Assembly: GCA_016699425.1 (NCBI GenBank)
Contig: CP064975.1
Location: forward strand, 923,957-987,956
Direction of reading: 5' to 3'
Source: Candidatus Moraniibacteriota bacterium
GTDB taxonomy: Bacteria; Patescibacteriota; Minisyncoccia; Moranbacterales; UBA1568
Length of the DNA: 64,000 nt
Below are positions 3,034 to 61,650 of the stretch, one piece after another. Position numbers and translations under genes: made by a program. The notes beneath the pieces are model-generated. The model did no database searches. It saw nothing but the letters and a program-made list of their open reading frames with translations, and was not told the DNA's origin. Every line of letters starts with the position of its first letter. Position 1 is the first letter of the stretch.

Positions 3034-3821
3034 AGTGTTTGCGATACGGGGTGACTGAAGGTATGTTCCGCCTCGAGTAGCATCTTCACGAGTTCGCGCG
3101 GATAGAGACTCTCTCCGCCGACGAGGACACCGGACATCTCTGCTTCCCAAGACACTGACGCGAGAGCCGTCGCTTTGACTGATCCGCCATAGATCACCGT
3201 CATCCGCTCGGCAAACGCCGGATCATAAAGCCCGGAGAACAGCTTACGGAGGTACACCTTCACCTGAAGGATATCCGCGGTCGTCGGCGTCACGCCCGTC
3301 CCGATCGCCCAGCGCGGCTCATAGGCGATGATCACCCGCTGTGCTAAAAGCGGTGAGAGATCGTCGAACACGGTCCGTACCGTTCGCTCAATGACCGTTG
3401 TCGTCTGCTCACGCTGACGTTCCTCTGCCGTCTCGCCGAGGCAGACGATGGGAATGATTCCTTCTTTCAAGGCCAGTCTGGTTTTCTTCGCGACGAGCGC
3501 ATCCGTCTCACCGGCATACGCCCGGCGTTCGCTGTGACCGAGGATGACATGTCCGACACCGGCATCGCGCAGCATCGCAGGAGAGATCTCGCCCGTGAAG
3601 GCGCCTTTCAGTTCCCACCCCATTGTCTGTGCGGCCAATGTGAAACCCGCTGGCAAATGACTGAAAGCGTGGAGATGGATCGCGGGTGGCGCGATGATCC
3701 CCCGGCTATGGGCGAAGGTCTTGCCTACGGACTCCCGCCGCAGCTGGGACAAGTACTCATTCACCTCAGTATGGGTGAGGAGGTGCATCTTGAGATTGCC
3801 GATGACGAGAAACGGTGACAT
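3030..3821 (-). CDS. tpiA: Triosephosphate isomerase
   Basis: 263 aa. Contains IAYEPRWAIGTG (TIM active-site signature) and GHSERR. Confidence 0.93.
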   Translation of the reverse strand: MSPFLVIGNLKMHLLTHTEVNEYLSQLRRESVGKTFAHSRGIIAPPAIHLHAFSHLPAGFTLAAQTMGWELKGAFTGEISPAMLRDAGVGHVILGHSERRAYAGETDALVAKKTRLALKEGIIPIVCLGETAEERQREQTTTVIERTVRTVFDDLSPLLAQRVIIAYEPRWAIGTGVTPTTADILQVKVYLRKLFSGLYDPAFAERMTVIYGGSVKATALASVSWEAEMSGVLVGGESLYPRELVKMLLEAEHTFSHPVSQTL

Positions 3822-5685: not shown

Positions 5686-5745
5686 ATCTTATAGCTTTAT
5701 TGTACCATAATCAGCTTCTGCAAGCATCGAAGATGCCGGAAATTG

Positions 5746-5816
5746 TCGGGCTGCCGGGAATCGAACCCGGCCTACGTGCACCCCATGCACGCGTACTGCC
5801 GATATACTACAGCCCG
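5746..5816 (-). tRNA. tRNA-Pro (anticodon GGG)
   Basis: The reverse complement folds as a cloverleaf. It has a 7-bp acceptor stem (CGGGCTG/CAGCCCG), anticodon stem CGTGC/GCACG with loop ATGGGGT, and T-arm CCGGG-TTCGATT-CCCGG. No CCA is encoded. Confidence 0.8.
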
Positions 5817-6291
5817 TATTTTTGTTCCTCTCGATTGCCTTCTGAAACACAGTGAGGATATCAAACCGAAGGAGAAATGAAAAGGAGCCCGGATCGCGGT
5901 ACTCCTTCCTTCGCTGCAGCGCAGCTAGGTTCGCCACGGGTAGTGGCTGTGTCGCTCGTTCACGACTCTACACGTTCTTCTTCGAATCCGCACGATGCGC
6001 TTGCCAGCGCGTCGAGGGCTGAGTGCGGAGGTTGGGATTGGTCACCCCGGAGTCATCCACACACAGCCGTCTATTGATTATCTCGAGCGGCGACAACCAC
6101 TCCCCATCCAGAGCAACGACCGGCAGATCCAGACCACTAAGGTCACCTTCTTGTGCGTTCATTTTGCACTCCTTCTCACAAAACAAGAACCACAGCAGGT
6201 GCATATCTTCCGACAGCACCCACCACCTACTCCTCGATCACCCACCGAGAAATATACGCTATCCTATACCTCCTGGATTTTTTTGCAAGGG

Positions 6292-6339: not shown

Positions 6340-6948
6340 TTACTCCAGAATGCCGTCGAGGTTCACATCGTAGAGGATTTGCTCTTGGACGAGACGGTAG
6401 TTGATGAGCTCTTCGGGCGTAAACCAGATGGCAATTTCACGCTCGGCTTCCTCAGGACTGTCAGAACAATGAATGAGGTTACGCACGGCCCGGTTGTCGA
6501 TGGCCGATAGACTGTAGGTGTCGATGGTGAAATCCCCGCGGATCGTCCCGACATCGGATGTACTGGGTTCGGTACTCCCCACCAGCTTGGTCGTGATTGC
6601 GACTGAACCCAGCCCCTCCACTACGAGACCGAGTACTGGTCCGGATGTCATGTATTCGACGATGGTACGGATGATGTCTTTGCCGTATTCAAGCGGCTCC
6701 TGCTCAATCGGCAGATCATGAGCCTTGCGGTCATCGATGACGCGCTGCCCCTTCTTCAGATACCACTCCTCGTTCTTCTGATAGTGTTCCCAGCACTGTT
6801 CCTCTTTGGCGACCATGAATTTCACCGCCACGAGCTTCAACCCAGTCCGCTCGATCCGGCGGATGACCTCTCCGATGAGTGAGCGTTGGATGGCGTCTGG
6901 CTTCAGGATCACGAGAGTGCGTTCTTTCTTCGGATGTGCGACAGCCAT
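6340..6948 (-). CDS. ndk: Nucleoside diphosphate kinase (long form with insertion)
   Basis: 202 aa. Contains ERTLVILKPD and NLIHCSD (active-site His region). It is longer than the typical about 140 aa form. Confidence 0.88.
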   Translation of the reverse strand: MAVAHPKKERTLVILKPDAIQRSLIGEVIRRIERTGLKLVAVKFMVAKEEQCWEHYQKNEEWYLKKGQRVIDDRKAHDLPIEQEPLEYGKDIIRTIVEYMTSGPVLGLVVEGLGSVAITTKLVGSTEPSTSDVGTIRGDFTIDTYSLSAIDNRAVRNLIHCSDSPEEAEREIAIWFTPEELINYRLVQEQILYDVNLDGILE

Positions 6949-7077
6949 AGACCTTCCTTTTAGAGAAAACGATTACGCTGGGACTGTAACACGAAAGGTT
7001 GTTTTCTGCAAGACGTGACACTCCTTCTCGGAAAACAACACCCAACAGACGGTGTAGATGCCTTACGAGACGCAGGT

Positions 7078-7926
7078 TTATCGTTCCCGCTGACAGGCAT
7101 TTTCCCGACAGCGGTAGACGATATCGCCCTCCATGTCAGTCCGTGAGACATTGACCCCGTGTGTCTGGAGCCGCTCCAAGACGGCCGGATGAGGATGTCC
7201 GTACGTATTCTTCCCGACCGAAATGATCGCTGCCTCTGGCCGCACCAGATCTAGTAAGGCATCGCTGGTCGAATACCGCGAGCCGTGATGACCGGCTTTC
7301 AGCACATCGACCGGCGTGAGATCAGGGATAAACCGCTCCTCATCGGGGAGGTCGCCCGTGAAGAGGAAACTCGTCTCGCCGTACTCGAAGCGCGCCACCA
7401 CACTCCCCTCATTCGTCTCAGGCACATCGGCTGGCTCTGGCGCATACGGATAAACGACGGACAATGCCCCGCCACCCGGCAATGTCACGCTCGTACCGCG
7501 CAGTGCCGGGACCCGGTCCGCCCCCTCCTGTTCCAAGTCGCGATAAAAGAGAAAAGCCGACCGCGTATCCGTCCGGGCCCCCGTATCGAGCACGGTCTTC
7601 ACCCGGTAGCGTTCGAGGAGAGCGGACAACCCGCCGATATGGTCCGCATCGGGATGGGTCGGGATGAGGACTTCGATGGTCCGATCATAGAACGGCACAT
7701 GACGGCCGAGCCGCGAGAGGAGGAGTCGCCCATCGCGTCCACCATCGATGACGATTTGATTCATCCCCTGGCTGATGAGGATGGCATCTCCTTGGCCGAC
7801 CGAGAGGAAGACTACTTTCGTTTCAGCGGCATTGGTCTGGATGAAAAACAACCACAACCCGAAGGCGAGGGTAAATGTCGCCAGCGCGCCGATCAAAACT
7901 GATTTAGTGATCCATCCCCAATACAT
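7078..7926 (-). CDS. comEC: ComEC/Rec2 C-terminal metallo-beta-lactamase domain ORF (split comEC, part 2)
   Basis: TM helix followed by VVFLSVGQGDAILI...HPDADHIGG...KAGHHGS, the MBL-fold motifs of the ComEC C-terminal domain. The track ORF begins at a TTG at 7992. The first ATG is at 7926. Confidence 0.8.
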   Translation of the reverse strand: MYWGWITKSVLIGALATFTLAFGLWLFFIQTNAAETKVVFLSVGQGDAILISQGMNQIVIDGGRDGRLLLSRLGRHVPFYDRTIEVLIPTHPDADHIGGLSALLERYRVKTVLDTGARTDTRSAFLFYRDLEQEGADRVPALRGTSVTLPGGGALSVVYPYAPEPADVPETNEGSVVARFEYGETSFLFTGDLPDEERFIPDLTPVDVLKAGHHGSRYSTSDALLDLVRPEAAIISVGKNTYGHPHPAVLERLQTHGVNVSRTDMEGDIVYRCRENACQRER

Positions 7927-47681: not shown

Positions 47682-48002
47682 CTACTTTTTGTCTGTTTTT
47701 CCTTCACTCAGCGTCACAGTGTCGCGAAGTTTCCCTTCGCTCACTGCCCAAGTATACACTCCTGCCACCGTCTCAGCAATTTTCACCGAGGTGAAGTTGT
47801 CAGAAACGGTTGTTTCAAGCCGAAAATCGCTCACATCCCCAGGATGCAGGTTGTTTCCCGAGAGCAGCGCCTCGATCCCCTCAAACAGCTGCCGCCCCAA
47901 GTCCCGGCTCTCGGCCCAGCTTTTTTCCGCGACAACCTCCCCATCCTTCATAAGAACGAGCCGGGCATCAGTCTTGGTGAGAGTGAGAAGGAAAGAGTTC
48001 AT
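47682..48002 (-). CDS. Truncated TsaB/YeaZ-like (inactive Kae1 paralogue) N-terminal domain protein
   Basis: 106 aa. Pattern LLTLTKTDARLVLMKDGEVV...SDNFTSVKIAETVAGV resembles the N-terminal half of TsaB (GPGSFTGxRIG region). Confidence 0.45.
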   Translation of the reverse strand: MNSFLLTLTKTDARLVLMKDGEVVAEKSWAESRDLGRQLFEGIEALLSGNNLHPGDVSDFRLETTVSDNFTSVKIAETVAGVYTWAVSEGKLRDTVTLSEGKTDKK

Positions 48003-48251
48003 AGTATATAAAAAAGTATTGGCCCTGTGTCAGTTGTACTGTATCACGGAGCCAGGGTGAATCAAGCTGTGGCACGCTTAGACTTATAAGCACACCGATT
48101 GACCTTTCGGCTTTGTCATTAAACTTATGCTTTCTGTTAAATTTTTCGCTTTCTTACTGCTACAATGGGCCTGGATGCGTTCACCGTCAATATGTTAAGA
48201 ATATTGCAACAACAATCCGAGGGGGGGAACATCATCAAACAAGACTGATTT

Positions 48252-49970
48252 ATGAAGTTGCACAGCTTTGTAAAGAATTTTTCCTATCAACAATTTACTT
48301 ACCTGTTGGTAGGGCTCACTGTTCTTGTTTACCTAAACGGATTATTCGGCGAATTTCTTTCAGACGATCGGAAGCAAATCCTCGATAATCCGATCGTGCA
48401 TTCCTTTTCAAACTTCTTTACTTTTTTCCAAGGAAGTACCTTTGATGCTGGCGACGGGACTTTGGTCGGGCTGTTCTATCGTCCCTTGCAGACCATCTAC
48501 TTTTCTCTTCTTTGGAGCATTTTTGGAGCCCAGCCCGTCTTTTTCCATTTTTTTCAGCTCATCATTCATATCATCAATGGTCTTCTTGTTTTTTTTATTT
48601 TTAAGCACTGCTTTAGTAAAGTACTCGCTTTTTCCCTCAGCCTCATATTCATGATTCATCCAATGAATGTAGAGGCTGTTGCATACATATCGTCTTCAGG
48701 GGTCATACTGTCCCTTCTATTCGGCCTACTTGCATTCAGGATTGTTATCAGAAACAATATCAGGCCAAGGGATTACGCCCTACTTTCGAGTTTCTTGTTA
48801 CTCTCAGTCTTATCTCATGAAATTGGCTCCCTATTCATCCCCATTATCCTGTCATTTAAATTCTTATACGATAAGAAAAACGTATTCTCATGCGCTGGTA
48901 GTTTAGTATTTGTGGTGATTGTCTACGCCATCCTACGGTTTGGTGTTGGGCATGTCTATTTTCCTGAGGTTCATCAGTCGCCCATCATGACAATGTCTTT
49001 GATTGAAAGACTCCTGCACATTCCGAAAATTCTCATAACCTACCTCGGCACCTTCTTATTCCCGCTTCACCTGAGTTTTTCACAAGTCTGGACGATTCCA
49101 GAGATTGGATTCAGCAATTTTTACATACCATTGATGATTTTGCTCATTTTACTGGCTGGAAGCATTATCTTTACGCACCATCTCTACAAATCAAAAAGTG
49201 GCGAGTTTATCCTCTTCATATTTTTTGCGACTTGGTTACTCATAGGACTAATTCTTTTTATCCAAATAATTCCCGCTGAGCAAACCGTATCAGAGAGATG
49301 GTTCTATTTCCCGATGATAGGATTTCTCGGATTATTGGGGGTACTAGCGCAATACTTTATCGAAAAAAGGAATGGGGGTGTCATCAATTACCTGGCAATC
49401 ACCGTCTCTATCATTATTGTTCTCCTATCAGTCAGGACTATCGTGAGAAATAATGATTGGAGTGATGAGTTCACTTTAGCCAAACATGATATAAAGCACG
49501 ATCCAAATAACTATATACTTGCCAATGCGGTGGGCGCAGAATATCTCAGACGTGGCGACGCAAATAACGCAATCGGCTTCTTAGAGAAGTCTTCATCCCA
49601 CTTTACCGACGCCCAGACACTTAGCAATCTCGGTGCTGCGTACCTCATGCTGGGGAATTATTCAGAATCAAAAGAAGCATTGCAGAAATCCATAGAGATA
49701 AATGAGCTCAGCGACACTGTTACAAATATGGCATGGTTACTGGCAACGAGGGGTGATCCTGTAGAAGCGGAGGCTTTCATACGAAACAAACTCGACAAAT
49801 ATCCGCAGCTTTGGAAGCTTTGGATGGATTTGGCAATAGCAGAATATAAACTAAGTAAAAGAGATGAGGCATTACAGGCAGCTAAGCAAGCCTATTCATT
49901 GGCTCAAAACGGAGAAACGGCCTACCTCTATAACCAGATCAGTAAAAATCTCCCCTTGAAAATAGATTAG
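48252..49970 (+). CDS. GT39/PMT_2-like polytopic membrane glycosyltransferase with C-terminal TPR repeats
   Basis: 572 aa. About 11 TM helices in the N-terminal two thirds, then TPR-like helical repeats (...LGAAYLMLGNYSESKEALQKSIE...). The gene is markedly AT-rich (about 40% GC) compared with its surroundings. Confidence 0.7.
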   Translation: MKLHSFVKNFSYQQFTYLLVGLTVLVYLNGLFGEFLSDDRKQILDNPIVHSFSNFFTFFQGSTFDAGDGTLVGLFYRPLQTIYFSLLWSIFGAQPVFFHFFQLIIHIINGLLVFFIFKHCFSKVLAFSLSLIFMIHPMNVEAVAYISSSGVILSLLFGLLAFRIVIRNNIRPRDYALLSSFLLLSVLSHEIGSLFIPIILSFKFLYDKKNVFSCAGSLVFVVIVYAILRFGVGHVYFPEVHQSPIMTMSLIERLLHIPKILITYLGTFLFPLHLSFSQVWTIPEIGFSNFYIPLMILLILLAGSIIFTHHLYKSKSGEFILFIFFATWLLIGLILFIQIIPAEQTVSERWFYFPMIGFLGLLGVLAQYFIEKRNGGVINYLAITVSIIIVLLSVRTIVRNNDWSDEFTLAKHDIKHDPNNYILANAVGAEYLRRGDANNAIGFLEKSSSHFTDAQTLSNLGAAYLMLGNYSESKEALQKSIEINELSDTVTNMAWLLATRGDPVEAEAFIRNKLDKYPQLWKLWMDLAIAEYKLSKRDEALQAAKQAYSLAQNGETAYLYNQISKNLPLKID

Positions 49971-50014
49971 CCCATTTCATTTGCTCTTTTAAAAACCCGC
50001 AGCAGTATAAACAA

Positions 50015-52619: not shown

Positions 52620-53228
52620 CTAGTGTTTCTTCTCAACCAGAAAAGCGTAGTGGAAGCCACCGACCGGCGGCTCTTCGACGACCTCCAGTCCGGCATCTGC
52701 AATGACGCGTTTCATTTCATCTGGCTTGATGCGCAGTCCTCTTTCGGGACCGACAATCGATTCATCCGGGTCCCATTCGACGATGAGTGCTCGACCGGTG
52801 GGCTTCAGGATACGGGCCACCTCGCGCATGATGACGCCTTTGTCTTTGTTCTGGAGCAACACATCCTTGGCGATAACCCAATCGACAGACGCTGCGCCGA
52901 GACCGGATCCGTTCGCGCGCTCCAAATTGCAGCGCTGCGCGACAACATTGCCGAGTCCGAGCGTCTTGGCCTGGCTCGTGATCGCCTCCAGGGCTGAAGG
53001 CAAGACATCGAGCGCGTAGACCGTACCATCAGACCCGACCGCCCGGGCGAATTCGAACGAGAAGTGCCCTGATCCCGCGCCAAAATCTGCAACGGTGTCC
53101 CCCATGCCGACCGGTAAAGCGCGAATCACTACGCGCGGCTCGACGAAGGTCAGTGTTTTCGGTACATCCATAGTTTTGTTTGCTTTCTCTTCCTCTTCAA
53201 TTGTACAACGAAAGAAGCGGGTTTCCAA
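52620..53228 (-). CDS. Class I SAM-dependent methyltransferase
   Basis: Contains VADFGAGSGHFS (motif I) and ALDV (motif II), a Methyltransf_11/25-like fold. Confidence 0.85.
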   Translation of the reverse strand: METRFFRCTIEEEEKANKTMDVPKTLTFVEPRVVIRALPVGMGDTVADFGAGSGHFSFEFARAVGSDGTVYALDVLPSALEAITSQAKTLGLGNVVAQRCNLERANGSGLGAASVDWVIAKDVLLQNKDKGVIMREVARILKPTGRALIVEWDPDESIVGPERGLRIKPDEMKRVIADAGLEVVEEPPVGGFHYAFLVEKKH

Positions 53229-53375
53229 CGCTCCTCATGGCCACGGTTGCCCTCGAGCCATTCTTTCGCTAGACTGTGCTCGTTACAAATGGAAAGGTGG
53301 CCTCCGCCCAAGACGGACCGGCCTTGGGTCGGGAATGGTTCTGAATAGATTGTACTTGAGAAAATTTACGCAGCT

Positions 53376-53425
53376 GGAAAGGTGGCCGAGTCCCGCCAGA
53401 GGCGGGCAAGGGTTTAAGGTCTTGT
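53376..53425 (+). other. tRNA-Ser 5'-end partial duplicate fused to a GC hairpin
   Basis: GGAAAGGTGGCCGAGT matches the first 16 nt of the downstream tRNA-Ser at 15 of 16 positions. It is followed by a CCCGCC-AGAG-GCGGG hairpin. There is no T-arm or acceptor 3' strand. Confidence 0.4.
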
Positions 53426-53491
53426 TTGTTACCAATTTGTCGAAAATTGAAGAAACAATTTTTGGTATATAATTGAAATCCGCCTTAGAGC

Positions 53492-53576
53492 GGAAGGGTG
53501 GCCGAGTGGTTGAAGGCACACGCTTGGAAAGCGTGCATACCGCAAGGTATCGCGGGTTCGAATCCCGCCTCTTCCG
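53492..53576 (+). tRNA. tRNA-Ser (anticodon GGA)
   Basis: Cloverleaf with acceptor GGAAGGG/CTCTTCC, D-arm, anticodon stem CACGC/GCGTG with loop TTGGAAA, a long variable arm, and T-arm GCGGG-TTCGAAT-CCCGC. The acceptor stem is extended by the flanking agagc/gctct. No CCA is encoded. Confidence 0.85.
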
Positions 53577-53583
53577 CTCTGTG

Positions 53584-53670
53584 GCGGAGAAAGCCAGTCA
53601 CGTCGTTCGCGAACGACGTGACAAGCGTATGAGCAATCGTACCGGGGATTCGAATCCCCCTTTTTCCGCA
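53584..53670 (+). other. Non-canonical tRNA-like element (acceptor-like stem, T-arm and a 13-bp perfect palindrome)
   Basis: GCGGAGAA pairs with TTTTCCGC. The T-arm GGGGATTCGAATCCCC matches the tRNA-Ser 3' region at about 21 of 26 positions. A GTCACGTCGTTCG/CGAACGACGTGAC palindrome sits in the middle. No standard D or anticodon arm. Confidence 0.35.
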
Positions 53671-53853
53671 GAGAGCGGAGCGAACAAGGAATGGAGCACG
53701 CCAACTGCTTGGCGTGCGTGGGGGATGAGAATGACGGAGCACTGCCGAACAAGCATGAAATTTTATCGCATCAAACATTCAGAATTGAGGATAACGCGGG
53801 TGTTTTGAACGAACTATCCCGGATGGAATCACTACTGCAGCCAGCGTGATTTA

Positions 53854-55740
53854 GTGGTAAAATACAATTACAAAAGAAAACAAATGCTTTCTGCGAATCA
53901 TCATCAGGGCTTGCTTGTCTTTGAAAGAGGTGGCCGAGTGTATCTTTTTTGGCGTTCTGCCGAGCGCTCGATGCCGGGCATCTTCTCGGTCGAGAGTCCG
54001 GATGGCAGAAAATTCAAGAAAACACTTTCTTTCGTCGCTCTGTACCGTCCAGACGGCACCAAGACCGTGCTGGGTTCCTCGCCCGAACTCCGCGCCGGCT
54101 CGCTCGGCACCAAGACGCTGCTCAGCTTCCTCGATGAACGGAAGAACACACTCTTCGCCGCGATTGAAAAGGATGGTGCATGGAAGATCATTGCTGCCAC
54201 CGATAGCTTCCGTGCCCCGAGTGTCGTACTTGCTCCGAAGTCAACCCTGACCGCAAAAAGTCCGGCGCTCGCCTTCTTCAGCCGAGATGGCCGGATCATC
54301 TCGCTCGCCCGATCAACTGGCGACCTAACCCGCTGGAAGGACCTCGGTGATGTCCTCACTGTTCGGCCGAACAACTTTGATGCAGCGAATCTCTCTCCCC
54401 TGCATGCCGAAATCACTGTGCAAGGCACCCTCCTCGTCTACTCGGCTCAGGACCGCTCCGGCCAGATCGTCATCGGCGCCGCACTTTTCGATCGCAAGCA
54501 TCCGACGACCACATTGTGGCGCAGTGATCATGCTTTGTGGACCGCACCGATCGATACGCCACCAGACGCTGCGATCATCGGCGGAGGGAACATCGGGAAA
54601 TACTTCTCGATCTATCTCCAGTCAGCGGAACACGGCATTGAATCATACCCGATCGCTCGCTACTGGGAAACGTACCGGCAGCGCGTTCGACCGGCACTCC
54701 CCCTGCCGCCACGCATACCGGGTATACGCATCCCGATCGAGCGTTTCGCCCAAAATCCGATCATCGAACCAGTCGTCAGACATTCCTGGGAGGCCTTCGC
54801 GACCTTCAATCCGGCTGCCATCTGCCTCGACGGACGCATCCATCTCCTCTATCGGGCACAAGGCTATGACGGACAGTCCGTTCTCGGGTATGCCTCGAGC
54901 GGAGACGGTGTCCACATTGATGAACGACACGCCAACCCCGCCTTCGTCCCGTCTCGTGCTGCCGAGTCAGCGGCTCGGACACACGCACTGTCCTTTGTCT
55001 CCGGCGGTGGGACGGGCGGATGCGAAGATCCGCGACTCGTCGAAATCGATGGGGTGGTCTATCTCATCTATGTCGCTTTCGATGGCGCCAATCCCCCCGG
55101 TGTCGCGCTCACACATATTGCCAAAGCCGATTTCCTTGCGAAGCGCTGGGAGTGGGCCCGACCGAAGCTCATCTCGCTGCCGGGAGAAATTCAGAAAAAC
55201 TGGGTTCTCTTCCCAGAGCAAATCAATGGAAAATACGCGATCATCCACGGTCTGAGCCCTGAAATCCGGATTGAATATGTTGACAGCCTGAAAAGACTTG
55301 GGGATGGCCACTATATCCGAAGTCTCAAGTCGCATGGTGGCCGCGGCTATATCGAGCCGGCTCGGCTGCGTGCCTGGGACAATATCGTCCGTGGGGTCGG
55401 CGCACCACCCATCAAGACCGCGTATGGCTGGCTCGTGTTCTACCATGGTATGGATCTGCGGGACCCGGGTAAATACAAAGTCGGCGTCATGCTCCTCGAC
55501 CTCGAACACCCCGAGAAAATTCTCCGACGTGCCCTAGAACCGGTACTCGAGCCGGAAACCTTCTACGAAAACAGCGGCCACAAGCCTGGTGTCATCTATG
55601 TCTGCGGTGCCGTCATTAAAGACAAGAAGCTCCTCGTTTATTACGGAGCAGCTGATCGCAGTACGGGGGTCGCGATGGCCGATCTCGACTCCTTCCTCGG
55701 TGATCTCTTGAAAAATACGCCCCCACCCTCACGAAGATGA
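53854..55740 (+). CDS. Glycoside hydrolase family 130 (DUF377) protein with extra N-terminal domain
   Basis: 628 aa. The C-terminal about 320 aa show GH130 hallmarks (FNPAAI..., GCEDPRLVEIDGVVYLIY, GWLVFYHGMD...KYKVGVMLLD, LVYYGAADR). The N-terminal about 300 aa are beta-rich and may be a degenerate GH130 or other beta-propeller domain. Confidence 0.75.
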   Translation: MVKYNYKRKQMLSANHHQGLLVFERGGRVYLFWRSAERSMPGIFSVESPDGRKFKKTLSFVALYRPDGTKTVLGSSPELRAGSLGTKTLLSFLDERKNTLFAAIEKDGAWKIIAATDSFRAPSVVLAPKSTLTAKSPALAFFSRDGRIISLARSTGDLTRWKDLGDVLTVRPNNFDAANLSPLHAEITVQGTLLVYSAQDRSGQIVIGAALFDRKHPTTTLWRSDHALWTAPIDTPPDAAIIGGGNIGKYFSIYLQSAEHGIESYPIARYWETYRQRVRPALPLPPRIPGIRIPIERFAQNPIIEPVVRHSWEAFATFNPAAICLDGRIHLLYRAQGYDGQSVLGYASSGDGVHIDERHANPAFVPSRAAESAARTHALSFVSGGGTGGCEDPRLVEIDGVVYLIYVAFDGANPPGVALTHIAKADFLAKRWEWARPKLISLPGEIQKNWVLFPEQINGKYAIIHGLSPEIRIEYVDSLKRLGDGHYIRSLKSHGGRGYIEPARLRAWDNIVRGVGAPPIKTAYGWLVFYHGMDLRDPGKYKVGVMLLDLEHPEKILRRALEPVLEPETFYENSGHKPGVIYVCGAVIKDKKLLVYYGAADRSTGVAMADLDSFLGDLLKNTPPPSRR

Positions 55741-55772: not shown

Positions 55773-57695
55773 ATGCCATTCTTCAAACGCTCGTTCGAAA
55801 ACCCAATCCTCGTACCACAGAATGACCTCCCTTGGGAGTCTGATGGGGCCTTCAATGGATCGGCCATTCGGGAGAAAGGCAAGACCCGTCTTCTTTATCG
55901 AGCGCAGTCTCTCCCGCTCCTCCACGACGATGGGCCGTGGCTCTCCCTTTCATCCATTGGCCACGTCGAGAGTACTGATGGGATACATTTCAAGAATCAC
56001 CGCCAGGTCATCAAGCCAGAACTGCACTGGGAACGCTATGGCTGCGAAGATCCCCGAGTCACAAAATGCGATGGCAAATATTATGTGTTCTATACAGCAC
56101 TCTCGGAATTCCCCTTCCGCGCCGAGGGCATCTCGGTCGGTCTCGCCATCACCAAGAACTTCAAAACGTTCGAGAAACATCACATCACACCCTTCAATGC
56201 GAAAGCGATGACGCTTTTCCCGGAGCGAATCGGTGGCAAACTCTGGGCGATACTCTCAGCCAATACCGATCAGCCACCTGCGACCATCGCGCTCGCTTCC
56301 TTTGACGATGAGACCGACCTCTGGGATCAGGCGCGTTGGCAGGCCTGGTATCAGGAATTAGACCAGCACGGACTCGAACTCCAGCGGACCGATAATGATC
56401 ACGTCGAGATCGGTGCGGCGCCGATCAAAACCAAGGAAGGCTGGCTGCTCCTCTATTCCTATATCCAGCAGTACCATACCGCCTCCCCCATTTTCACGGT
56501 CGAAGCCGTGCTCCTCGATCTCGAGAATCCTCGGAAAATCATCGCCCGAACTGATGTGCCACTCCTCGTCCCAGAGGAAGAGTATGAACACTACGGCAAG
56601 GTGAAGGATATCGTCTTCCCGACTGGAGTTGTGCTACGCGGTGACTCACTGTTTCTCTACTACGGTGCGGCTGACACAACCACCTGCGTCGCCATCGGGA
56701 GCTTGAAGACAATACTGAAGGAGATGCGATCCGACCCCAAACGGCGACCGCAATTTGAGCGCTATGGGCACAATCCCGTGCTCGCACCCGTCGCGAAACA
56801 TGACTGGGAAGCCAAAGCAGTCTTCAACCCCGCTGCTATCGACGTCCCAGGGAAAACAGTCATCCTCTACCGTGCGATGTCCGCCGATGACACCTCTGTC
56901 CTCGGGTACGCGGAAAGCAAGAATGGTTTCCGTATCAACCGCCGCCTCCCCGATCCGGTCTATATCCCCCGCGCGCCGTTTGAAACAAAGAACGCGCCGG
57001 GTAATTCCGGTTGCGAAGATCCCCGCCTTACGCGTTTCAACGATACCTACTACATGCTCTACACCGCGGTTGATGCCGCTACCCCGCCGCGCGTCGCGCT
57101 TACGACTATCCCAGTCGATGATTTCCTCGCCGAACGTTTCGAACGTTTCTCCGATCCAGTCCTCATCTCGCCGCCGGGCATCGATGACAAAGACGCCTGC
57201 CTCTTTCCGGAGAAAATCGGTGGCAAGTATGTCGTCCTGCATCGCATCCAGCCCTCGATCGACATCAATTTTCTCGATGACCTTGCCTTCGACGGCACCT
57301 CGCGATTTCTGATGCATCGTCCGTTCATCTTCCCACGGCGCGGCATGTGGGATAGCCGAAAGATCGGCATCAACACCGCCCCGATACGAACTAAAGCTGG
57401 CTGGCTCATCCTCTACCACGGTGTCTCTGAGTACGATGGTCACTACCGTGTCGGGGCGATTCTCCTAGATCTCGAAAATCCCGAACGCATCATCGGCCGC
57501 AGCCGGCACCCGCTCTTCAGCCCCGAGGAAGACTATGAACGCGTGGGGGTTGTCCCCAATGTCGTCTTCCCTTGCGGTGCGGTCGTCCGCGGGACCAAGC
57601 TCATCACCTACTACGGCGGGGCTGACCGTGTCGTCGGTGTTGCATCCATCGCGCTGCCCAAACTCTTGAAGTCCCTCCTCGCTGATGGCGTGTAG
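55773..57695 (+). CDS. Tandem-GH130 (two DUF377 glycosidase/phosphorylase domains) protein
   Basis: 640 aa. Two homologous halves each carry FENPIL/GHNPVL, (Y)GCEDPR, GWL(L/I)LY...Y and (Y)YGAAD/YYGGAD, the mannoside-phosphorylase-type GH130 motifs. Confidence 0.82.
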   Translation: MPFFKRSFENPILVPQNDLPWESDGAFNGSAIREKGKTRLLYRAQSLPLLHDDGPWLSLSSIGHVESTDGIHFKNHRQVIKPELHWERYGCEDPRVTKCDGKYYVFYTALSEFPFRAEGISVGLAITKNFKTFEKHHITPFNAKAMTLFPERIGGKLWAILSANTDQPPATIALASFDDETDLWDQARWQAWYQELDQHGLELQRTDNDHVEIGAAPIKTKEGWLLLYSYIQQYHTASPIFTVEAVLLDLENPRKIIARTDVPLLVPEEEYEHYGKVKDIVFPTGVVLRGDSLFLYYGAADTTTCVAIGSLKTILKEMRSDPKRRPQFERYGHNPVLAPVAKHDWEAKAVFNPAAIDVPGKTVILYRAMSADDTSVLGYAESKNGFRINRRLPDPVYIPRAPFETKNAPGNSGCEDPRLTRFNDTYYMLYTAVDAATPPRVALTTIPVDDFLAERFERFSDPVLISPPGIDDKDACLFPEKIGGKYVVLHRIQPSIDINFLDDLAFDGTSRFLMHRPFIFPRRGMWDSRKIGINTAPIRTKAGWLILYHGVSEYDGHYRVGAILLDLENPERIIGRSRHPLFSPEEDYERVGVVPNVVFPCGAVVRGTKLITYYGGADRVVGVASIALPKLLKSLLADGV

Positions 57696-57867: not shown

Positions 57868-58251
57868 TCACTTCTTCCGCAATGGTTGGGCATGCCGCCA
57901 CTGTACGACGCATGGCTCCGGTTCGTCCAAGTGGTGACGCACTGTCACACCTCGACCATCGGCCGACAGACAAAGCTGAGTCCCTCTGACTACCTGAAAA
58001 CCGTGGTCATCATCCGGTCCCTCGTGGCACGTGATTGCGCCCTCCAGATGGATGTAGCAGTCACCGCCACCCATCTCACCAACGTATGGTCCAGAGACAT
58101 CAGCGGACTCACCGGGCTGGATGGTAACGTCCTCGGCATAACCTTGTTCAACGTGGTAACCGAAAGCGATGATGGGATACGATGTCTTGTTAATGACCTT
58201 CATGCTTCTACCTCCCTCGATGTAGGTTGGATAATCTGTCCTCGAGCTCAA
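57868..58251 (-). CDS. Hypothetical small protein
   Basis: Track ORF of 127 aa. A likely start is the internal ATG (MKVINKTSYPII) at about 58203. No recognisable motif. Confidence 0.4.
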   Translation of the reverse strand: MSSRTDYPTYIEGGRSMKVINKTSYPIIAFGYHVEQGYAEDVTIQPGESADVSGPYVGEMGGGDCYIHLEGAITCHEGPDDDHGFQVVRGTQLCLSADGRGVTVRHHLDEPEPCVVQWRHAQPLRKK

Positions 58252-58510
58252 GGACTTATCAGACTACTTACTTTAGCAACTTTAGTCAATACATGATGTT
58301 TGAATCCCATCCGTGATAACAATAAATAAGGCTGTTACAGCCCTTCTTTGAGAGTATTCCCTCTAGTGAACAAACTTAGGACTTTGGATTGGAGAAGTAT
58401 TGGGAAGATGGTGGGAGAGATGGGGACAGTTTTAGCGTAAAAAAGGGAGTGGGTATTGCCGTGTTAGGCTCACCACTCCTTTGTTCGTCTCGGCCGCTGC
58501 CACGCTTGCT

Positions 58511-58648
58511 TTAGGCAAAAATGCAGTTAGCGACCCAGATGAGGGCGCCTAGAACGCCCGATATGAACGCCATCAGTCCGACGTTCTTTTCCTGCCACGC
58601 TTGGCGCAGAGAAATCTTTGGGGTACACAGATACGCGTTCGGTATCAT
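58511..58648 (-). CDS. Candidate small membrane peptide (45 aa)
   Basis: Found by manual translation. GAGAGGAG Shine-Dalgarno sits 6 nt upstream of the ATG. A single C-terminal TM helix (GLMAFISGVLGALIWVANCIFA). Too short for the ORF track. Confidence 0.3.
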   Translation of the reverse strand: MIPNAYLCTPKISLRQAWQEKNVGLMAFISGVLGALIWVANCIFA

Positions 58649-58806
58649 GCTCAACTCCTCTCGTAAAAAATGATTGCTTTACCCTAACCAATTCACCTCC
58701 TACTCATGTCCAAACTGGACTGAACATACTATCAGAGTTTTACATAAAGTCAACAGAGGGCAACAAAAAAGGTTCCACTTTAGAGCATTACCCATCTCGA
58801 AATAAT

Positions 58807-59511
58807 TCAGCGCCTTAACATCTTTTGAAAAAGGGGCTTAAACATATCATCCTCGATATCAATGTGAAGCTCATTCCGATTCACTCTTTCACAAAACTCT
58901 ACTGGCACATCCTGAATAAGAGCGAGTGGTTGTTTTTCGTCTCCCTCGCCCATAAGGAGAACTGCCGCGGTTGCCAAACTATCCGCCACATCAGTACTCG
59001 AGAACTTGAGCTTTCGACCATAGATATCCGGTTTCCCTCGGTAATCTCTGAGACCGCGAAAGCCCGCATACCCCAGCGCTATTCCGACCACACCGGAGCG
59101 GAGCGGCATCGTTCTGCTATCCGTCAAAATGATCCCCAGGTTTTTCACTCTGTAATATTTCTGTAGCTTCATGCGGATGAGAGAGGCAGATCGAAAGCTA
59201 TCCTTTGGTAACAGAATGAGTTTGCCATTGGCATTTGATTCATCGATGCCGGCTGAGGGCAGGATCATCCCATCTTTGATAGTAAGCCAAACGTATTTCG
59301 TCTTCAGTGCAAAGCTACTTTCAGCACGGATCGCTTCCTCTTTCGTTTTGGAATCCTTGATAATCACCGTTCTTCTTTCTGCAAGAGCAACTATTTTGGA
59401 AGTAATAACAATGACTGACTTCTCAGGAATTTTTTCAATATAAGAAGTTATAAATGGTAGAAGATTCTCTCCTTCCAAAAACGTCCGAGTTTTTATGGCT
59501 TGAGTATGCAT
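58807..59511 (-). CDS. CofE-like F420-0:gamma-glutamyl ligase family protein
   Basis: 234 aa. Contains SKIVALAERR, AGIDESNANGKLILLP and TDSRTMPLRSGVVGIALGYAGF, the CofE family pattern. The gene is AT-rich. Confidence 0.7.
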   Translation of the reverse strand: MHTQAIKTRTFLEGENLLPFITSYIEKIPEKSVIVITSKIVALAERRTVIIKDSKTKEEAIRAESSFALKTKYVWLTIKDGMILPSAGIDESNANGKLILLPKDSFRSASLIRMKLQKYYRVKNLGIILTDSRTMPLRSGVVGIALGYAGFRGLRDYRGKPDIYGRKLKFSSTDVADSLATAAVLLMGEGDEKQPLALIQDVPVEFCERVNRNELHIDIEDDMFKPLFQKMLRR

Positions 59512-59528
59512 ATAGATGAAGGTACTGA

Positions 59529-60167
59529 TTATTGTTCATTATCTTTGAGGAGATGAATCCCTATGTAGGAAAGGGGCGTATAGAGCATCCCCATTGCGAC
59601 CTTATACAACCACCAGGAGAAAATAATGCTCACCAACGTGGAAGCGCTGTAGACACCAGCAAAGGCAATGACCATAAAAATAGTCGTATCCAGCAATTGC
59701 GACCACAGATTAGACAGAGATGAGCGGAGCCAGAAATACTTTATTTTCAGCTTGTTTCGAAAGAAAAAGAAGGAGAAGACATCTTGATACTGTGCGATCA
59801 AGAATGCGGCGAGTGAAGCAAGAGCAATCCGTACCGAAACCCCGAAGACTTGATCATAGCCATCCCGTACCCAGCCCCCAGCCTCAGACCAGGGCATAAC
59901 AAGCGACACAAGTGAATATGCGATGAACAGTGCCGTACTCAAAAACCCAGCGAGAACGAAATATTTTGCCATGCTCTTCCCATATACTTCGCCGATTACG
60001 TCATTCATCAAGAACACGATGGGGAATGAAAACACTGCGACAGAGAGATGAGACCCAAAAATGAAGGGCATAATTTTCAGGCCCAATGTGTTGGCCGCGA
60101 ATAATGAAGTCAGATATATGGCCAGTGCGATTATAAGCTTTCTGAACGAGCGGTCAGTAAGAATCAT
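59529..60167 (-). CDS. yhhQ: Queuosine-precursor transporter family protein (YhhQ/VUT, DUF165)
   Basis: 212 aa with 6 TM helices. Contains FPIVFLMNDVIGEVYG, the VUT family signature. The gene is AT-rich. Confidence 0.78.
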   Translation of the reverse strand: MILTDRSFRKLIIALAIYLTSLFAANTLGLKIMPFIFGSHLSVAVFSFPIVFLMNDVIGEVYGKSMAKYFVLAGFLSTALFIAYSLVSLVMPWSEAGGWVRDGYDQVFGVSVRIALASLAAFLIAQYQDVFSFFFFRNKLKIKYFWLRSSLSNLWSQLLDTTIFMVIAFAGVYSASTLVSIIFSWWLYKVAMGMLYTPLSYIGIHLLKDNEQ

Positions 60168-60180
60168 ATTTTAAGAGAGT

Positions 60181-60210
60181 AAAGAATAAATAAAACCGCC
60201 TGACAGGCGG
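60181..60210 (-). terminator. Hairpin plus T-run immediately upstream of the yhhQ start (terminator or attenuator)
   Basis: Minus-strand reading shows CCGCCTGTCAGGCGG followed by TTTTATTTATTCTTT. It ends about 15 nt before the yhhQ ATG. Confidence 0.45.
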
Positions 60211-60665
60211 AACTGAAAAGGCTAAAATTTCCGCTCTATCAGGATAGGATTGCGGTATTGTGGACAAAGCCGGACCAGGTTTTCGTGTATCGATTGTGGA
60301 GCATGAAAAGACTATACCAGGATTGATAGTGAAATTCAAATCGGGTCCTTTATAAGACTCTATTTGAATTTGCTCCGACGACAGACCCGAACCCCCGAGA
60401 GGAGAAGTTCGCTTAGAGTCCCAACACATCCGTGCTTCAAACCCTGGAATTACTCGCGGTCCGTAGATAGCCCATCTAGTTCGGGAGAAGAATCGGGCCG
60501 AGGGCGACCCCGAGAAAATACGGCCAAAGGATGACGGCCAAGATTCCCTGCCCAAACGTCAGGTGCAAGAAACCAATCGTGAAAAGCCAGCCAACACACC
60601 ACAGCCCGCCAGAGAAAACATGATTTTCCACCTTGATTTTCTCCACACGACGCCAGATTACATGA

Positions 60666-60902
60666 TTACGGTCTGGATGATTCGGATGCGGTGCGTTCCG
60701 CGTGCTTTACAGGCACGATAAAAATTGCGAGGACATAGGCGATGACACCCGGTGCAAATCCCGTAAAGACGGTGACGAGAATCCACAACAGTCGCAACAC
60801 CACCGGATCGACGGCCCAGTATTCACCCAGACCACCGCAAATTCCTGCCAGAACTTTATTCGACTGACTTCGTAGATGCTTCGTTGGTGCTCCTGTTTCC
60901 AC
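60666..60902 (-). CDS. PspC-domain membrane protein
   Basis: 78 aa. Contains KVLAGICGGLGEYWAVDPVVLRLLWILVTVF, the PspC domain signature, followed by a TM helix. Confidence 0.75.
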   Translation of the reverse strand: METGAPTKHLRSQSNKVLAGICGGLGEYWAVDPVVLRLLWILVTVFTGFAPGVIAYVLAIFIVPVKHAERTASESSRP

Positions 60903-60981
60903 ATCGTTAGATTAATTTTTTCAGATCCGCGTGAATCCTTTCCCCCATCCATCGGAAACGCACGCGCCCCTGACTCTCCCG

Positions 60982-61650
60982 CTACTGTACGGGAGCCGGC
61001 GCGCTCGGGAGCGTCATCCCGGCCGGCAACTTATCCTTCATTTCTTGCATGAGTTTCGTCGACTGCTCCAGCATCGCGCACTGGTCAGTGAACGTGACAT
61101 CCTTCGGGATCGTGAAATCAGCACCCGATGCCGGTTCACATTTCACGTTCTTGGCCATATCGAACGCCTTCTCCATATCCTGAGGCTCAGCTGGAGTCGG
61201 TGCCCCAGCAGGCTTGGGCAGATCCTTCACACTCGTCTGAAGCTTCTCGAGACAGGCCTTGGACATCCGCATGCCGGTCTTGGAAGCACTCGTCCACGAA
61301 TACTGGTTTTCACCATCCATGAGCGAGTACATCGTCATATCACCCACGGTCGTTGTCGACTTCACCTTGCTGCCTTCGATGAAAACGGTTGACACAACCT
61401 GATCATCCCCTTTGCTCATCGCATAGGTGCACTGCATCTTCTGACCGAGCCCCATCGCTTCTTTGAGGGAGGACACCATACCTTTCTCCTCCGCCATGGG
61501 AGTTGGATTCTTGGCAGCCACTTCATTGTTCGGATCCATTTGACCCGCCAGCGGCATATCGTTCGCAACCGGTTTCGGCCGGCTATTCCAGTAGAGGAAC
61601 CCGCCAATGAGGAGCACTGCCACCACGACCAGCCCGATGATTTTTCCCAT
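60982..61650 (-). CDS. Hypothetical membrane-anchored/secreted protein
   Basis: 222 aa. N-terminal TM helix (IIGLVVVAVLLIGGFLY), then a polar extracellular region with several Cys. Confidence 0.5.
   Translation of the reverse strand: MGKIIGLVVVAVLLIGGFLYWNSRPKPVANDMPLAGQMDPNNEVAAKNPTPMAEEKGMVSSLKEAMGLGQKMQCTYAMSKGDDQVVSTVFIEGSKVKSTTTVGDMTMYSLMDGENQYSWTSASKTGMRMSKACLEKLQTSVKDLPKPAGAPTPAEPQDMEKAFDMAKNVKCEPASGADFTIPKDVTFTDQCAMLEQSTKLMQEMKDKLPAGMTLPSAPAPVQ

Follow-up and report, generated by a model that had tools for sequence, protein, structure and literature searches.

The spacer described here lies in a 64-kb stretch of DNA (the whole of which is referred to as the window) from Candidatus Moranbacteria (Moraniibacteriota), a bacterium of the Candidate Phyla Radiation. 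It separates a class I methyltransferase gene from the first of two GH130 genes and holds a tRNA-Ser(GGA) gene flanked on both sides by tRNA-Ser-like pieces. Given the ATG starts of both bordering genes, the true spacer runs from about 53172 to 53883. Homologues of both flanking proteins were almost all from Candidatus Moranbacteria, and loci from relatives, designated by L-numbers, were collected through the GH130 proteins, the methyltransferase proteins and a conserved promoter-block pattern; they include L081 (GCA_049290235.1), L106 (GCA_030690925.1, JAUYFO010000085.1) and L102, a low-coverage contig of 1181 nucleotides (nt) at 1.9x coverage. A metagenome scan with the promoter block gave seven loci, two of them new and relevant, and a loose stub-motif scan covering 851 kb of Moranbacteria loci found, near tRNA-Ser genes, known sites only.

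ARAGORN and Rfam agreed on a canonical tRNA-Ser(GGA) in the spacer, as proposed in the initial annotation, and all the other items described there were located again in the sequence (Table 1). The gene has no encoded CCA, and in the window, L081 and L102 it was the sole tRNA called in the array. ARAGORN reported neither a tRNA nor a tmRNA in the downstream element (element D, also in L081 and L102) or in the upstream stubs. Rfam was applied at gathering scores over the whole window, at E<=10 on the spacer and at E<=1 in relatives; between 53150 and 53950 at E<=10 it gave no RF00005 match besides the live gene, and the same was true of element D in L081 and L102. Neither program called any of the flanking pieces a tRNA. 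A known RNA family was also sought for the pieces and rejected, the other Rfam matches being antisense RF04351 only, a plastid trnS-derived family that also matches the 3' halves of real tRNA-Ser genes.

Table 1. Features of the tRNA-Ser(GGA) spacer and its borders, with comparable sites in relatives; positions are those of the window unless a locus is named.
Feature	Position	Strand	Remarks
Class I methyltransferase gene	52620-53171	-	from ATG start; left border of spacer
Native tRNA-Ser promoter block (putative) and short leader	53247-53290	+	TTGCCC, 17 nt, TAGACT, then ~15 nt
Stub A, GGAAAGGTGGCC	53291-53302	+	first 12 nt of old tRNA-Ser(GGA) allele; 12/12 match
X1, spacer after stub A	53303-53375	+	small GC hairpins
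Unit 2, decayed old-allele tRNA-Ser copy	53376-53491	+	ends at the base before live gene
Unit 2: old positions 1-16	53376-53391	+	16/16 against old allele
Unit 2: GC hairpin hp1, CCCGCC-aga-GGCGGG (53392-53406), plus CAAG	53392-53410	+	sits in D-loop
Unit 2: old positions 17-34	53411-53428	+	17/18 against old allele
Unit 2: AT-rich imperfect hairpin with TATAAT -10-like box	53429-53473	+	replaces the middle of the copy
Unit 2: TTGAAATCCGCCTTAGAGC	53473-53491	+	leader of live tRNA
Leader-trailer pairing (hp2), TCCGCC..AGAGC with GCTCT..GGCGGA	53479-53588	+	inverted repeat I2, 18 nt, 89% complementary
Live tRNA-Ser(GGA), new allele	53492-53577	+	ARAGORN; Rfam RF00005, 59.2 bits (gathering score 29)
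Element D, tRNA-Ser pseudogene or junction chimera	53584-53669	+	cloverleaf-like, 86 nt
Element D: 5' strand GCGGAGAAAG	start of 53584-53669	+	pairs with CTTTTTCCGC
Perfect 26-nt palindrome, GTCACGTCGTTCG|CGAACGACGTGAC	53597-53622		at anticodon-arm position of D
Element D: old-allele positions ~40-88	53622-53669	+	44/49 against old allele in window
Element D: variable arm	53627-53642	+	
Element D: T-arm relic	53644-53659	+	followed by 3' acceptor strand
T-arm relic turned terminator-like: hairpin GGGGATTCGAATCCCC, then CTTTTTCCGC U-run	53644-53669	+	from consensus scan
Native trailer module M1 of old tRNA gene	53670-53760	+	truncated in window
Conserved hairpin in M1, GCACGCCAA/TTGGCGTGC	53696-53717	+	9 pairs
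First of two GH130 genes	ATG at 53884	+	right border of spacer
Stub-plus-Y site, L084	1734-1847		
Stub-plus-Y site, L096	~5774-5885	-	
Stub-plus-Y site, L097	~140-252	-	
Stub-plus-Y site, L103	~940-1052	-	
L106 array	3170-3460		full tRNA-Ser(TGA) at 3296-3383 inside anticodon-like loop of tRNA-Ser-like shell

The tRNA-Ser(GGA) genes of the relatives fall into two allele classes. The gene of the window is 100% identical to those of L081 and L102, 99% to that of L105 and 91% to that of L017, a distant lineage whose GH130 protein is 55% identical; the copies of this new allele in the window, L081, L102 and L105 are 99-100% identical to one another. Its leader reads AATCCGCCYTAGAGC and its trailer CTCTGTGGCGGAG. 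The nearest relatives carry a different, old allele (GGAAAGG...CTTGC TTGGAAA GCAAG CGTACGAGCAATCGTAC ...GGGGGTTCGAATCCCCC CCTTTCC), which is 94-100% identical among its own copies in the simple and stub-plus-Y layouts described below, and only 77-82% identical to the new one. It is the old allele to which the pieces surrounding the live gene correspond. The array of the window can be read as four units: U1, stub A with X1 (53291-53375); U2, the decayed copy at 53376-53491; U3, the live gene; and U4, element D, in which a degenerate 5' strand and a filler hairpin precede an old 3' half.

Ahead of the first unit, at 53247-53290, stands a block that we infer to be the promoter of tRNA-Ser, its hexamers having been read by eye and the site not being among those of the consensus scan. 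The block, TTCTTTCGCTAnACTGTGCTCG with TTGCYC upstream, is kept in L006, L081, L084, L085, L094, L095, L096, L097 and L103; L227 has a single substitution (ACTGCGCTCG). In the relatives it always lies about 8 nt ahead of the start of tRNA-Ser, and its identity between the window and L081 was 0.79, compared with about 0.55 for neutral sequence. The neutral reference was taken from four-fold degenerate sites of the methyltransferase, SBP and first GH130 genes, which are 0.50-0.57 identical between the window and L081; the left part of the spacer, at 0.56, looks neutral in the same comparison. The native promoter block would still be directed into the array. It is followed by stub A, which the initial annotation had overlooked, and whose position after the leader is the one at which the single tRNA starts in L085, L227, L094 and L095. 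X1 has a near-neutral identity between the window and L081 (0.64) and shows one compensatory change against L081, CCCAAG/CTTGGG to CCCAGG/CCTGGG. It was considered as a diverged copy of the old tRNA, of the Y element found in relatives or of the next unit, with no significant similarity in any of these comparisons (p = 0.14-0.88); probably a partial copy once stood here, of which X1 is the decayed rest.

Unit 2 is similar to the old tRNA (p = 0.01) and is 0.82-0.92 identical between the window and L081. It begins with the near-exact 16-nt copy, fused to a GC hairpin, that had been noticed in the initial annotation: GGAAAGGTGGCCGAGT agrees with 15 of the first 16 nt of the live tRNA, starts 116 nt upstream of it and runs directly into hp1. 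The UUA anticodon previously read from a fold of this copy is a misfold, because the region in question, GGTTTAAGG, belongs to a stretch that matches the D-loop/D-stem segment of the old allele (positions 18-26); 53411-53428 as a whole corresponds to the D-loop, the D-stem and the 5' strand of the anticodon stem. Within the AT-rich hairpin the sequence TATAAT (53468-53473; TACAAT in L081) lies about 19 nt before the live gene. This -10-like box was likewise read by eye and is not in the consensus scan; it may be the promoter of the live gene, placed inside a dead copy. The exact 11-mer GGTGGCCGAGT occurs three times in the 64 kb, always within 53381-53939. What looked like a third 5' copy at 53924-53939 (11-mer at 53929) was dismissed as a coding coincidence, because it lies inside the GH130 frame (..ERGGRVY..) and its nucleotides are not kept in relatives.

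On the downstream side the initial annotation had described an element with an acceptor-like stem and a T-arm, and this was recovered as element D. Its closing stem, GCGGAGAAAG/CTTTTTCCGC, has 10 pairs, and the stretch 53570-53685 folds into a three-way junction of -63 kcal/mol (z = -8.05), a stability reached by 0 of 200 shuffles. The last 31 nt (53639-53669) match the live tRNA (53547-53577) at 25 of 31 positions (family D2, 81%). The 3' part agrees better with the old allele than with the live one, in L102 and L081 at 48-49 of 50-51 positions compared with 36-37, and the 3' ~48 nt correspond to the 3' strand of the anticodon stem, the variable arm, the T arm and the 3' end of the old gene. 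The live gene itself is framed by a pairing of its leader with its trailer (hp2), which lengthens the acceptor helix to about 18 bp, is present in the minimum-energy folds of the window and L081 and is conserved in L081 and L102.

The perfect 26-nt palindrome reported within the element was confirmed. It is unique in the window, where the chance expectation is none even with 3 mismatches, and is identical in L102; L081 has in its place an unrelated 18-nt stretch between GCAAG direct repeats, and the identity of 0.33 for this segment marks the two as non-homologous. The palindrome is a lineage-specific filler in D. Two explanations in terms of mobile sequences were tried and rejected. The palindrome is not a repeated element, since the window has one copy and the other loci compared have none. 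An IS200/IS605-type miniature element spanning 53429-53620 fits only in the TTAC at its left junction: the AT-rich hairpin on its left and the GC hairpin on its right are unrelated, the right hairpin is wholly different in L081 and the palindrome is single-copy. A loosely similar hairpin, GCCACAGTCGTTCacgAACGACGTGGC, was seen in L026 at 7294-7324, nested in a longer inverted repeat (cattccggac...gtccggaat-like) within the region 7280-7345, and may represent a small palindromic repeat family in Moranbacteria.

The 3' part of element D is changing rapidly in this genome. Compared with L102, L081 and the old allele, the T-arm relic has a window-specific G>A, two C>T and one deleted C, which together give GGGGATTCGAATCCCC followed by CTTTTT; the D 3' region differs from L102 at 5 of 50 nt, whereas the shared block otherwise differs at about 1% (P of about 1e-4 by a binomial estimate). 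The resulting hairpin has 6 pairs, 4 of them G-C, and is the only terminator-like site on the plus strand between 53100 and 54000. Because the canonical terminator that follows the tRNA or D in relatives is missing from the window, this T-arm-derived hairpin with its U-run may terminate transcription in this genome. Element D may also have a role as a co-transcribed structured trailer. The fast change in the window, together with the broken T arm of its counterpart in L106, suggests that D is decaying.

Element D is followed by M1, which is homologous to positions 103-192 of L080 (93-95% identity) and to what directly follows the lone old-type tRNA of L227 and of L095. It contains the further hairpin that the initial annotation had placed after D, with nine pairs rather than the 8 bp given there; the pairing survives three double compensatory changes in L095, and the flanks GAACRAGGAATGGA ... 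GTGGRGAYGAGA are conserved. The full module was found in L227 (~170 nt after its tRNA), L095 (10110-10300) and L080 (103-270). The module closes, in relatives, with a tRNA 3' remnant of T-loop type, GACCGAAT..TTTCCGCA, and a terminator; further tRNA 3'-end remnants of this kind lie downstream in L227, L095, L080 and L081. Stub A and the 3' end of D are accordingly the two ends of the resident old gene, still in place and 318 nt apart.

Three layouts were found at this locus among the relatives. In the simplest, TTCTTTCGCTAnACTGTGCTCG is followed after about 8 nt by a single tRNA-Ser(GGA) (L085/86/88, L094, L095, L227 and L006); L021 and L017 have the simple layout too, with other flanks. The synteny check called for in the initial annotation thus did reveal empty sites, with a single old-type tRNA behind the same block, and single-gene sites of this kind are present in about ten relatives. 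In the second layout (L084, L096, L097-L101 and L103) the block precedes the tRNA's first 19 nt, then a conserved insert Y of about 97 nt and a complete old tRNA. Stub and Y share a conserved multi-stem fold in which changes are mostly GC to GU, and Y is weakly like a decayed tRNA-Ser (p = 0.02). The composite layout of the window is also present in L102, which is about 99% identical to it over 53056-53669, and in L081, whose flanking proteins are 87-89% identical. L105 is informative for the origin of the leader. There, what separates the native leader from the new tRNA can be aligned over its full length with the old tRNA (p = 0.002); this decayed old copy is uninterrupted, ends in AATCCGCCCTAGAGC / ...GTAATCCGCCCTAGAGC and directly abuts the new tRNA. 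From this arrangement the window leader at 53473-53491 is likely an old-copy remnant, so that TTGAAATCCGCCTTAGAGC would most likely be the decayed T-loop and 3' end of the preceding old copy.

The surroundings of the tRNA are highly variable. The genes that follow it differ in nearly every relative and include DKNYY in L080, ribA/pyrF-gmk in L081, restriction-modification genes in L083/L099, VTT/GT2 in L084/L096 and an M23 peptidase; L227 has no GH130 pair at this locus. Comparison of the window with L102 showed an identity of about 80% that rises, within the methyltransferase gene at ~53050-53060, to about 99%, holds to 53669 and breaks off exactly at the 3' end of the old tRNA, which reflects either a recombination tract or a chimeric low-coverage contig. 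The second GH130 gene (55773-57695; L081 11889-13811) is 98.6% identical in protein and 0.83 at four-fold sites to that of L081, compared with 87-89% and 0.50-0.57 for its neighbours, which suggests a recent exchange. Judged from these comparisons the region clearly looks like a recombination mosaic, and the tRNA-Ser(GGA) site appears to be a hotspot of gene gain and loss in Moranbacteria. In L083 (162-3056) and L099 (215-3109) an HTH regulator and a type IIG restriction-modification enzyme (N6_Mtase/Eco57I) lie between tRNA-Ser and GH130, an insert that belongs to a lineage with a 76% identical GH130; L101 has a different HTH-containing insert in the same place (1-763). In L081 an open reading frame of 111 aa (6766-7101) with zinc-ribbon-like CxxC pairs and no Pfam match lies between the tRNA array and ribA.

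From the allele match of the pieces, their positions and the layouts in relatives, we consider it fairly probable that, at this variable, recombination-prone locus, the flanking pieces are what remains of older tRNA-Ser(GGA) copies and surround a replacement allele. To the same degree it seems probable that the spacer records several rounds of tRNA-Ser(GGA) turnover, in which case the working gene is 53492-53577 alone. The relics are now probably only context for it. In the course of events that we propose, a DNA segment with a second tRNA-Ser(GGA) allele would have entered the region of the resident gene, either through recombination with foreign DNA or on an integrating element whose crossover fell in the anticodon loop. 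Integrases reportedly favour crossover in the anticodon loop of tRNA genes. The outcome would have been an old copy, the new tRNA, the old 3' half displaced from the anticodon stem onwards, and the native trailer, that is, an attL/element/attR geometry with the rebuilt gene as attL, then the element, and the displaced 3' half as attR. An element carrying its own tRNA-Ser(GGA) would create two redundant genes, upon which the old copy could decay; the rest of the incoming segment would have been lost in this small genome, and the extra 5' stub would stem from a local partial duplication. Unit 2 may be the original partner of the displaced 3' half, its own 3' end being too degraded to say more, and the complete decayed old copy upstream in the window and L105 suggests that the host gene may have been intact at first. 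Because no integrase was found, the mechanism of insertion can only be inferred.

A scar of integration or excision had been one of the explanations offered in the initial annotation, and it is broadly right about the nature of the pieces and of the locus: the pieces are tRNA-Ser relics, empty sites exist, the flanks vary, extra 3' remnants occur and the GH130 pair is absent from L227. Other observations do not fit a classical att scar, and several weigh against replacement by an incoming segment as well. The integrase gene or pseudogene expected near the locus was not found among the neighbours in the window or in the tables of a dozen or so relatives; by Pfam there was no integrase or recombinase among the genes within ~6 kb on either side of the locus, and genes for an integrase, excisionase or transposase were likewise missing from the precomputed Pfam tables of L080-L106 and L227. 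Neither the window nor L081 has a recognisable duplicated core at its junctions; L106 alone showed a possible TTG(A) core. Just ~45 nt lie between the live gene and the displaced 3' half, so that the element would be almost wholly gone. The 5' stubs are not expected from 3'-directed integration and need partial duplications, and the downstream partial copy matches the older allele instead of the live gene, unlike a classical att scar. Nor was the donor found among viral contigs: the new allele, its trailer and the shell of tRNA-Ser-like pieces were sought there with three specific patterns, all with 0 matches, while a 14-mer used in a fourth scan matched at least 120 times, taken as chance for so short a pattern. 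Finally, the relics are conserved above the neutral level of ~0.55 (the D 3' half is 50/50 between L102 and L081 and 0.88-1.0 overall), and non-tRNA blocks are colinear between the window and L106 (GTGGCCGAGTCCCGCC at 16/16, ATCCGCCTT at 9/9, and TGGCGGAG.AA..CAGTC), which a one-off scar would not account for and from which it follows that the units share ancestry or are selected. Inert DNA as old as this would be expected to differ more; the conservation points either to later exchange of the block between lineages or to some constraint.

A second reading is that the resident gene was simply duplicated in tandem, with all copies but one decaying and no foreign DNA involved, the new allele having either diverged in place or descended from ancient tandem paralogues that were differentially lost. 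The direct-repeat family D1, with spacings of 85 and 116 nt, fits such a history, as do the native leader kept by the first unit and the native trailer kept by the last, the sister lineages with stub, decayed Y (p = 0.02) and live gene, the simple tandem of old and new copies in L105 and the failure to find mobile-element genes. One thing that makes it unlikely as the whole explanation is the live allele, which is 91% identical to that of the distant L017 and 77-82% to those of near relatives, so that divergence in place would need convergence. In addition, X1 and unit 2 are not significantly similar (p = 0.14), the displaced 3' half starts at the anticodon stem and its L106 counterpart is split in the anticodon loop, and the flanks vary strongly. 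For part of the history, a local tandem duplication after which alleles were exchanged by recombination is nevertheless a serious alternative. A quite different proposal, and a very improbable one, is that element D is a genuine unusual tRNA (for example one without a D arm), a tmRNA domain, a Y-RNA-like molecule or a viral-type tRNA-like structure. D does fold stably, with a stem like that of an acceptor, a variable arm and a T arm whose loop is TTCGAA, but a closed 13-bp palindrome takes the place of the anticodon loop, the acceptor register is off by 2 nt, the T loop has 6 nt in the window and the middle is not conserved in relatives; ARAGORN called no tRNA or tmRNA there, and Rfam gave no tRNA-clan or tRNA-like match (E<=10 in the window, E<=1 in relatives). 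The initial annotation's suggestion of an independent non-canonical tRNA-like RNA accordingly received no support from tRNA or Rfam models, and D is mutating in the window. Nor could the outer pieces be joined into one gene around the live tRNA: as an intron-containing tRNA they would, upon removal of the insert, have no GGA anticodon and a loop of 3 nt only, and as a functional gene they are spoiled by substitutions and a deletion in the 5' half.

The arrangement in L106, a locus from more distant Moranbacteria, bears on whether the pieces do something together. A similar array lies there 2.9 kb upstream of that locus's own GH130 pair, around a tRNA-Ser(TGA) gene. The acceptor halves of the surrounding shell, GGAGGAG / CTCTTCC, still pair; the 5' half has the D-loop hairpin GAGT|CCCGCC...GGCGGG, as at 53388-53406 of the window; a closed ATCCGCCTT|TGGCGGAG hairpin, built from the two 6-mers that pair as leader and trailer in the window, stands where the window has the live tRNA, and a D-like unit starting with GGCGGAGCAACAGTC follows. 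The outer T arm is broken, and orthology of the array judged by the promoter block was not significant (p = 0.11). One could propose a functional scaffold RNA, in which a tRNA-Ser-derived shell, made up of a 5' half with its D-loop hairpin, a TCCGCC/GGCGGA clamp and a D-armless cloverleaf D, is co-transcribed with the live tRNA. Such a shell could serve as a processing handle, with RNase P or RNase Z recognising D and freeing the 3' end of the live tRNA, or as a conformational switch in which GGCGGA pairs with either the upstream TCCGCC or the downstream TTCCGC. We regard this as doubtful. The identity of unit 2 (0.82-0.92) and of the D 3' half (0.88-1.0) does exceed that of four-fold sites (0.50-0.57), but in a recombination mosaic high identity may simply mean recent exchange. 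Stems are kept while loops vary (aga or caa in hp1; aagaaa or cttct in the AT hairpin), but the stems are identical, not compensated, and true covariation is nearly absent. Folding is strong, with z = -8.05 for D and z of about -6 across the full array in three genomes, and in L081 all helices of the old cloverleaf can still form around the insert; the middle hairpin of D is, on the other hand, non-homologous between L081 and the window, D is changing fast in the window and the T arm of its L106 counterpart is broken. The same blocks stand in the same order around tRNA-Ser(TGA) in L106, yet they were found in only 3-4 genomes among ~850 kb of Moranbacteria DNA searched, about ten relatives have none of the pieces, and no Rfam family matches.

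It is, if anything, still harder to credit that in some Moranbacteria this tRNA-Ser-derived shell is a selected scaffold, co-transcribed around the live tRNA-Ser. The live gene occupies different pockets of the shell, inside the clamp in the window and inside the anticodon-like loop of the cloverleaf in L106. Were the shell such a scaffold, it would control tRNA maturation or 3'-end formation through mutually exclusive GGCGGA pairings, and would constitute a novel class of tRNA-embedded RNA, with a processing or regulatory role, in bacteria whose RNase repertoire is reduced. If the hairpin blocks shared with L106 are selected, the locus would instead represent a new tRNA-flanking RNA structure.

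Replacement of a resident allele, the reading that we favour, has counterparts among known systems. Partial tRNA genes commonly arise through integration, an example being PYG1 of Pyrococcus yayanosii, with a partial tRNA gene at the end of the element (PMC9897764), and tandem or degraded partial tRNAs mark degraded elements in the Prochlorococcus islands known as tycheposons (10.1101/2020.12.28.424599). The present locus shares with attL/attR remnants a full tRNA followed by a direct partial 3' copy starting at the anticodon stem, extra 3' remnants downstream in relatives, variable gene content, single-gene sites and fragments that tRNA-finding software ignores. It differs from them in having no integrase or element body and a gap of ~45 nt, in a fragment that fits the old allele (48-49 of 50-51) better than the live gene (25/31 only), in the upstream 5' stubs and in fragments conserved above neutral across species. 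Phages that integrate at a tRNA attB site with a same-isotype tRNA of their own are also documented (Guerrero-Bustamante and Hatfull 2024, PMC10865867); a related case, the Lj965 prophage of Lactobacillus johnsonii, is cited there. As in that tRNA-dependent lysogeny (PMC10865867), the incoming tRNA is the copy on which the cell depends, here with the same anticodon too, and a new-allele tRNA-Ser(GGA) lies between relics of the old one; those phages have a prophage and an integrase, whereas no phage, integrase or common core was found here, and the full decayed old copy upstream means that the host gene may have been rebuilt and later lost.

Two further comparisons concern the trailer side. At both this locus and the E. 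coli one discussed next, short repeats with a tRNA 3' end follow right after the live gene in one transcription unit. Downstream of tyrT in E. coli lie 178-bp repeats, each starting with the 3' end of the tRNA; these are regular tandem copies of the adjacent gene's 3' end, whereas the copies here derive from another allele, are irregular and are accompanied by 5' stubs. The mascRNA of MALAT1, a eukaryotic tRNA-like 3' module, is cleaved by RNase P. It offers a functional analogy only, in that a tRNA-like fold directly 3' of a mature RNA might be a target of RNase P or RNase Z; D, in contrast, has no canonical acceptor register and its middle is not conserved.

The locus is a known kind of tRNA-gene relic, and an unusually legible one. 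If our reading is right, it documents, almost to the base, how a very small genome exchanged an essential tRNA gene, present in a single copy, for a foreign allele: the ends of the old gene remain with the new gene between them, and the remains seem to provide the survivor with a promoter region, a leader and a terminator. The GH130 pair is among the genes that vary at this tRNA-Ser(GGA) hotspot. For annotation the case carries a warning that tRNA-like folds beside tRNA genes are usually fragments.

The initial annotation had also drawn attention to AT-rich islands nearby. No link between the two islands and the tRNA locus was found. One, at 48000-50000 (GC 0.41), encodes a 572-aa TPR protein, a similar gene being present in L097 and absent from L081 and L085, so that this gene varies too; the other, at 58000-61000 (GC 0.45-0.49), encodes an F420-0:gamma-glutamyl ligase and a Vut_1 transporter. 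Apart from the tRNA-Ser gene, the window has one tRNA, tRNA-Pro(GGG), at 5745-5816 on the minus strand.

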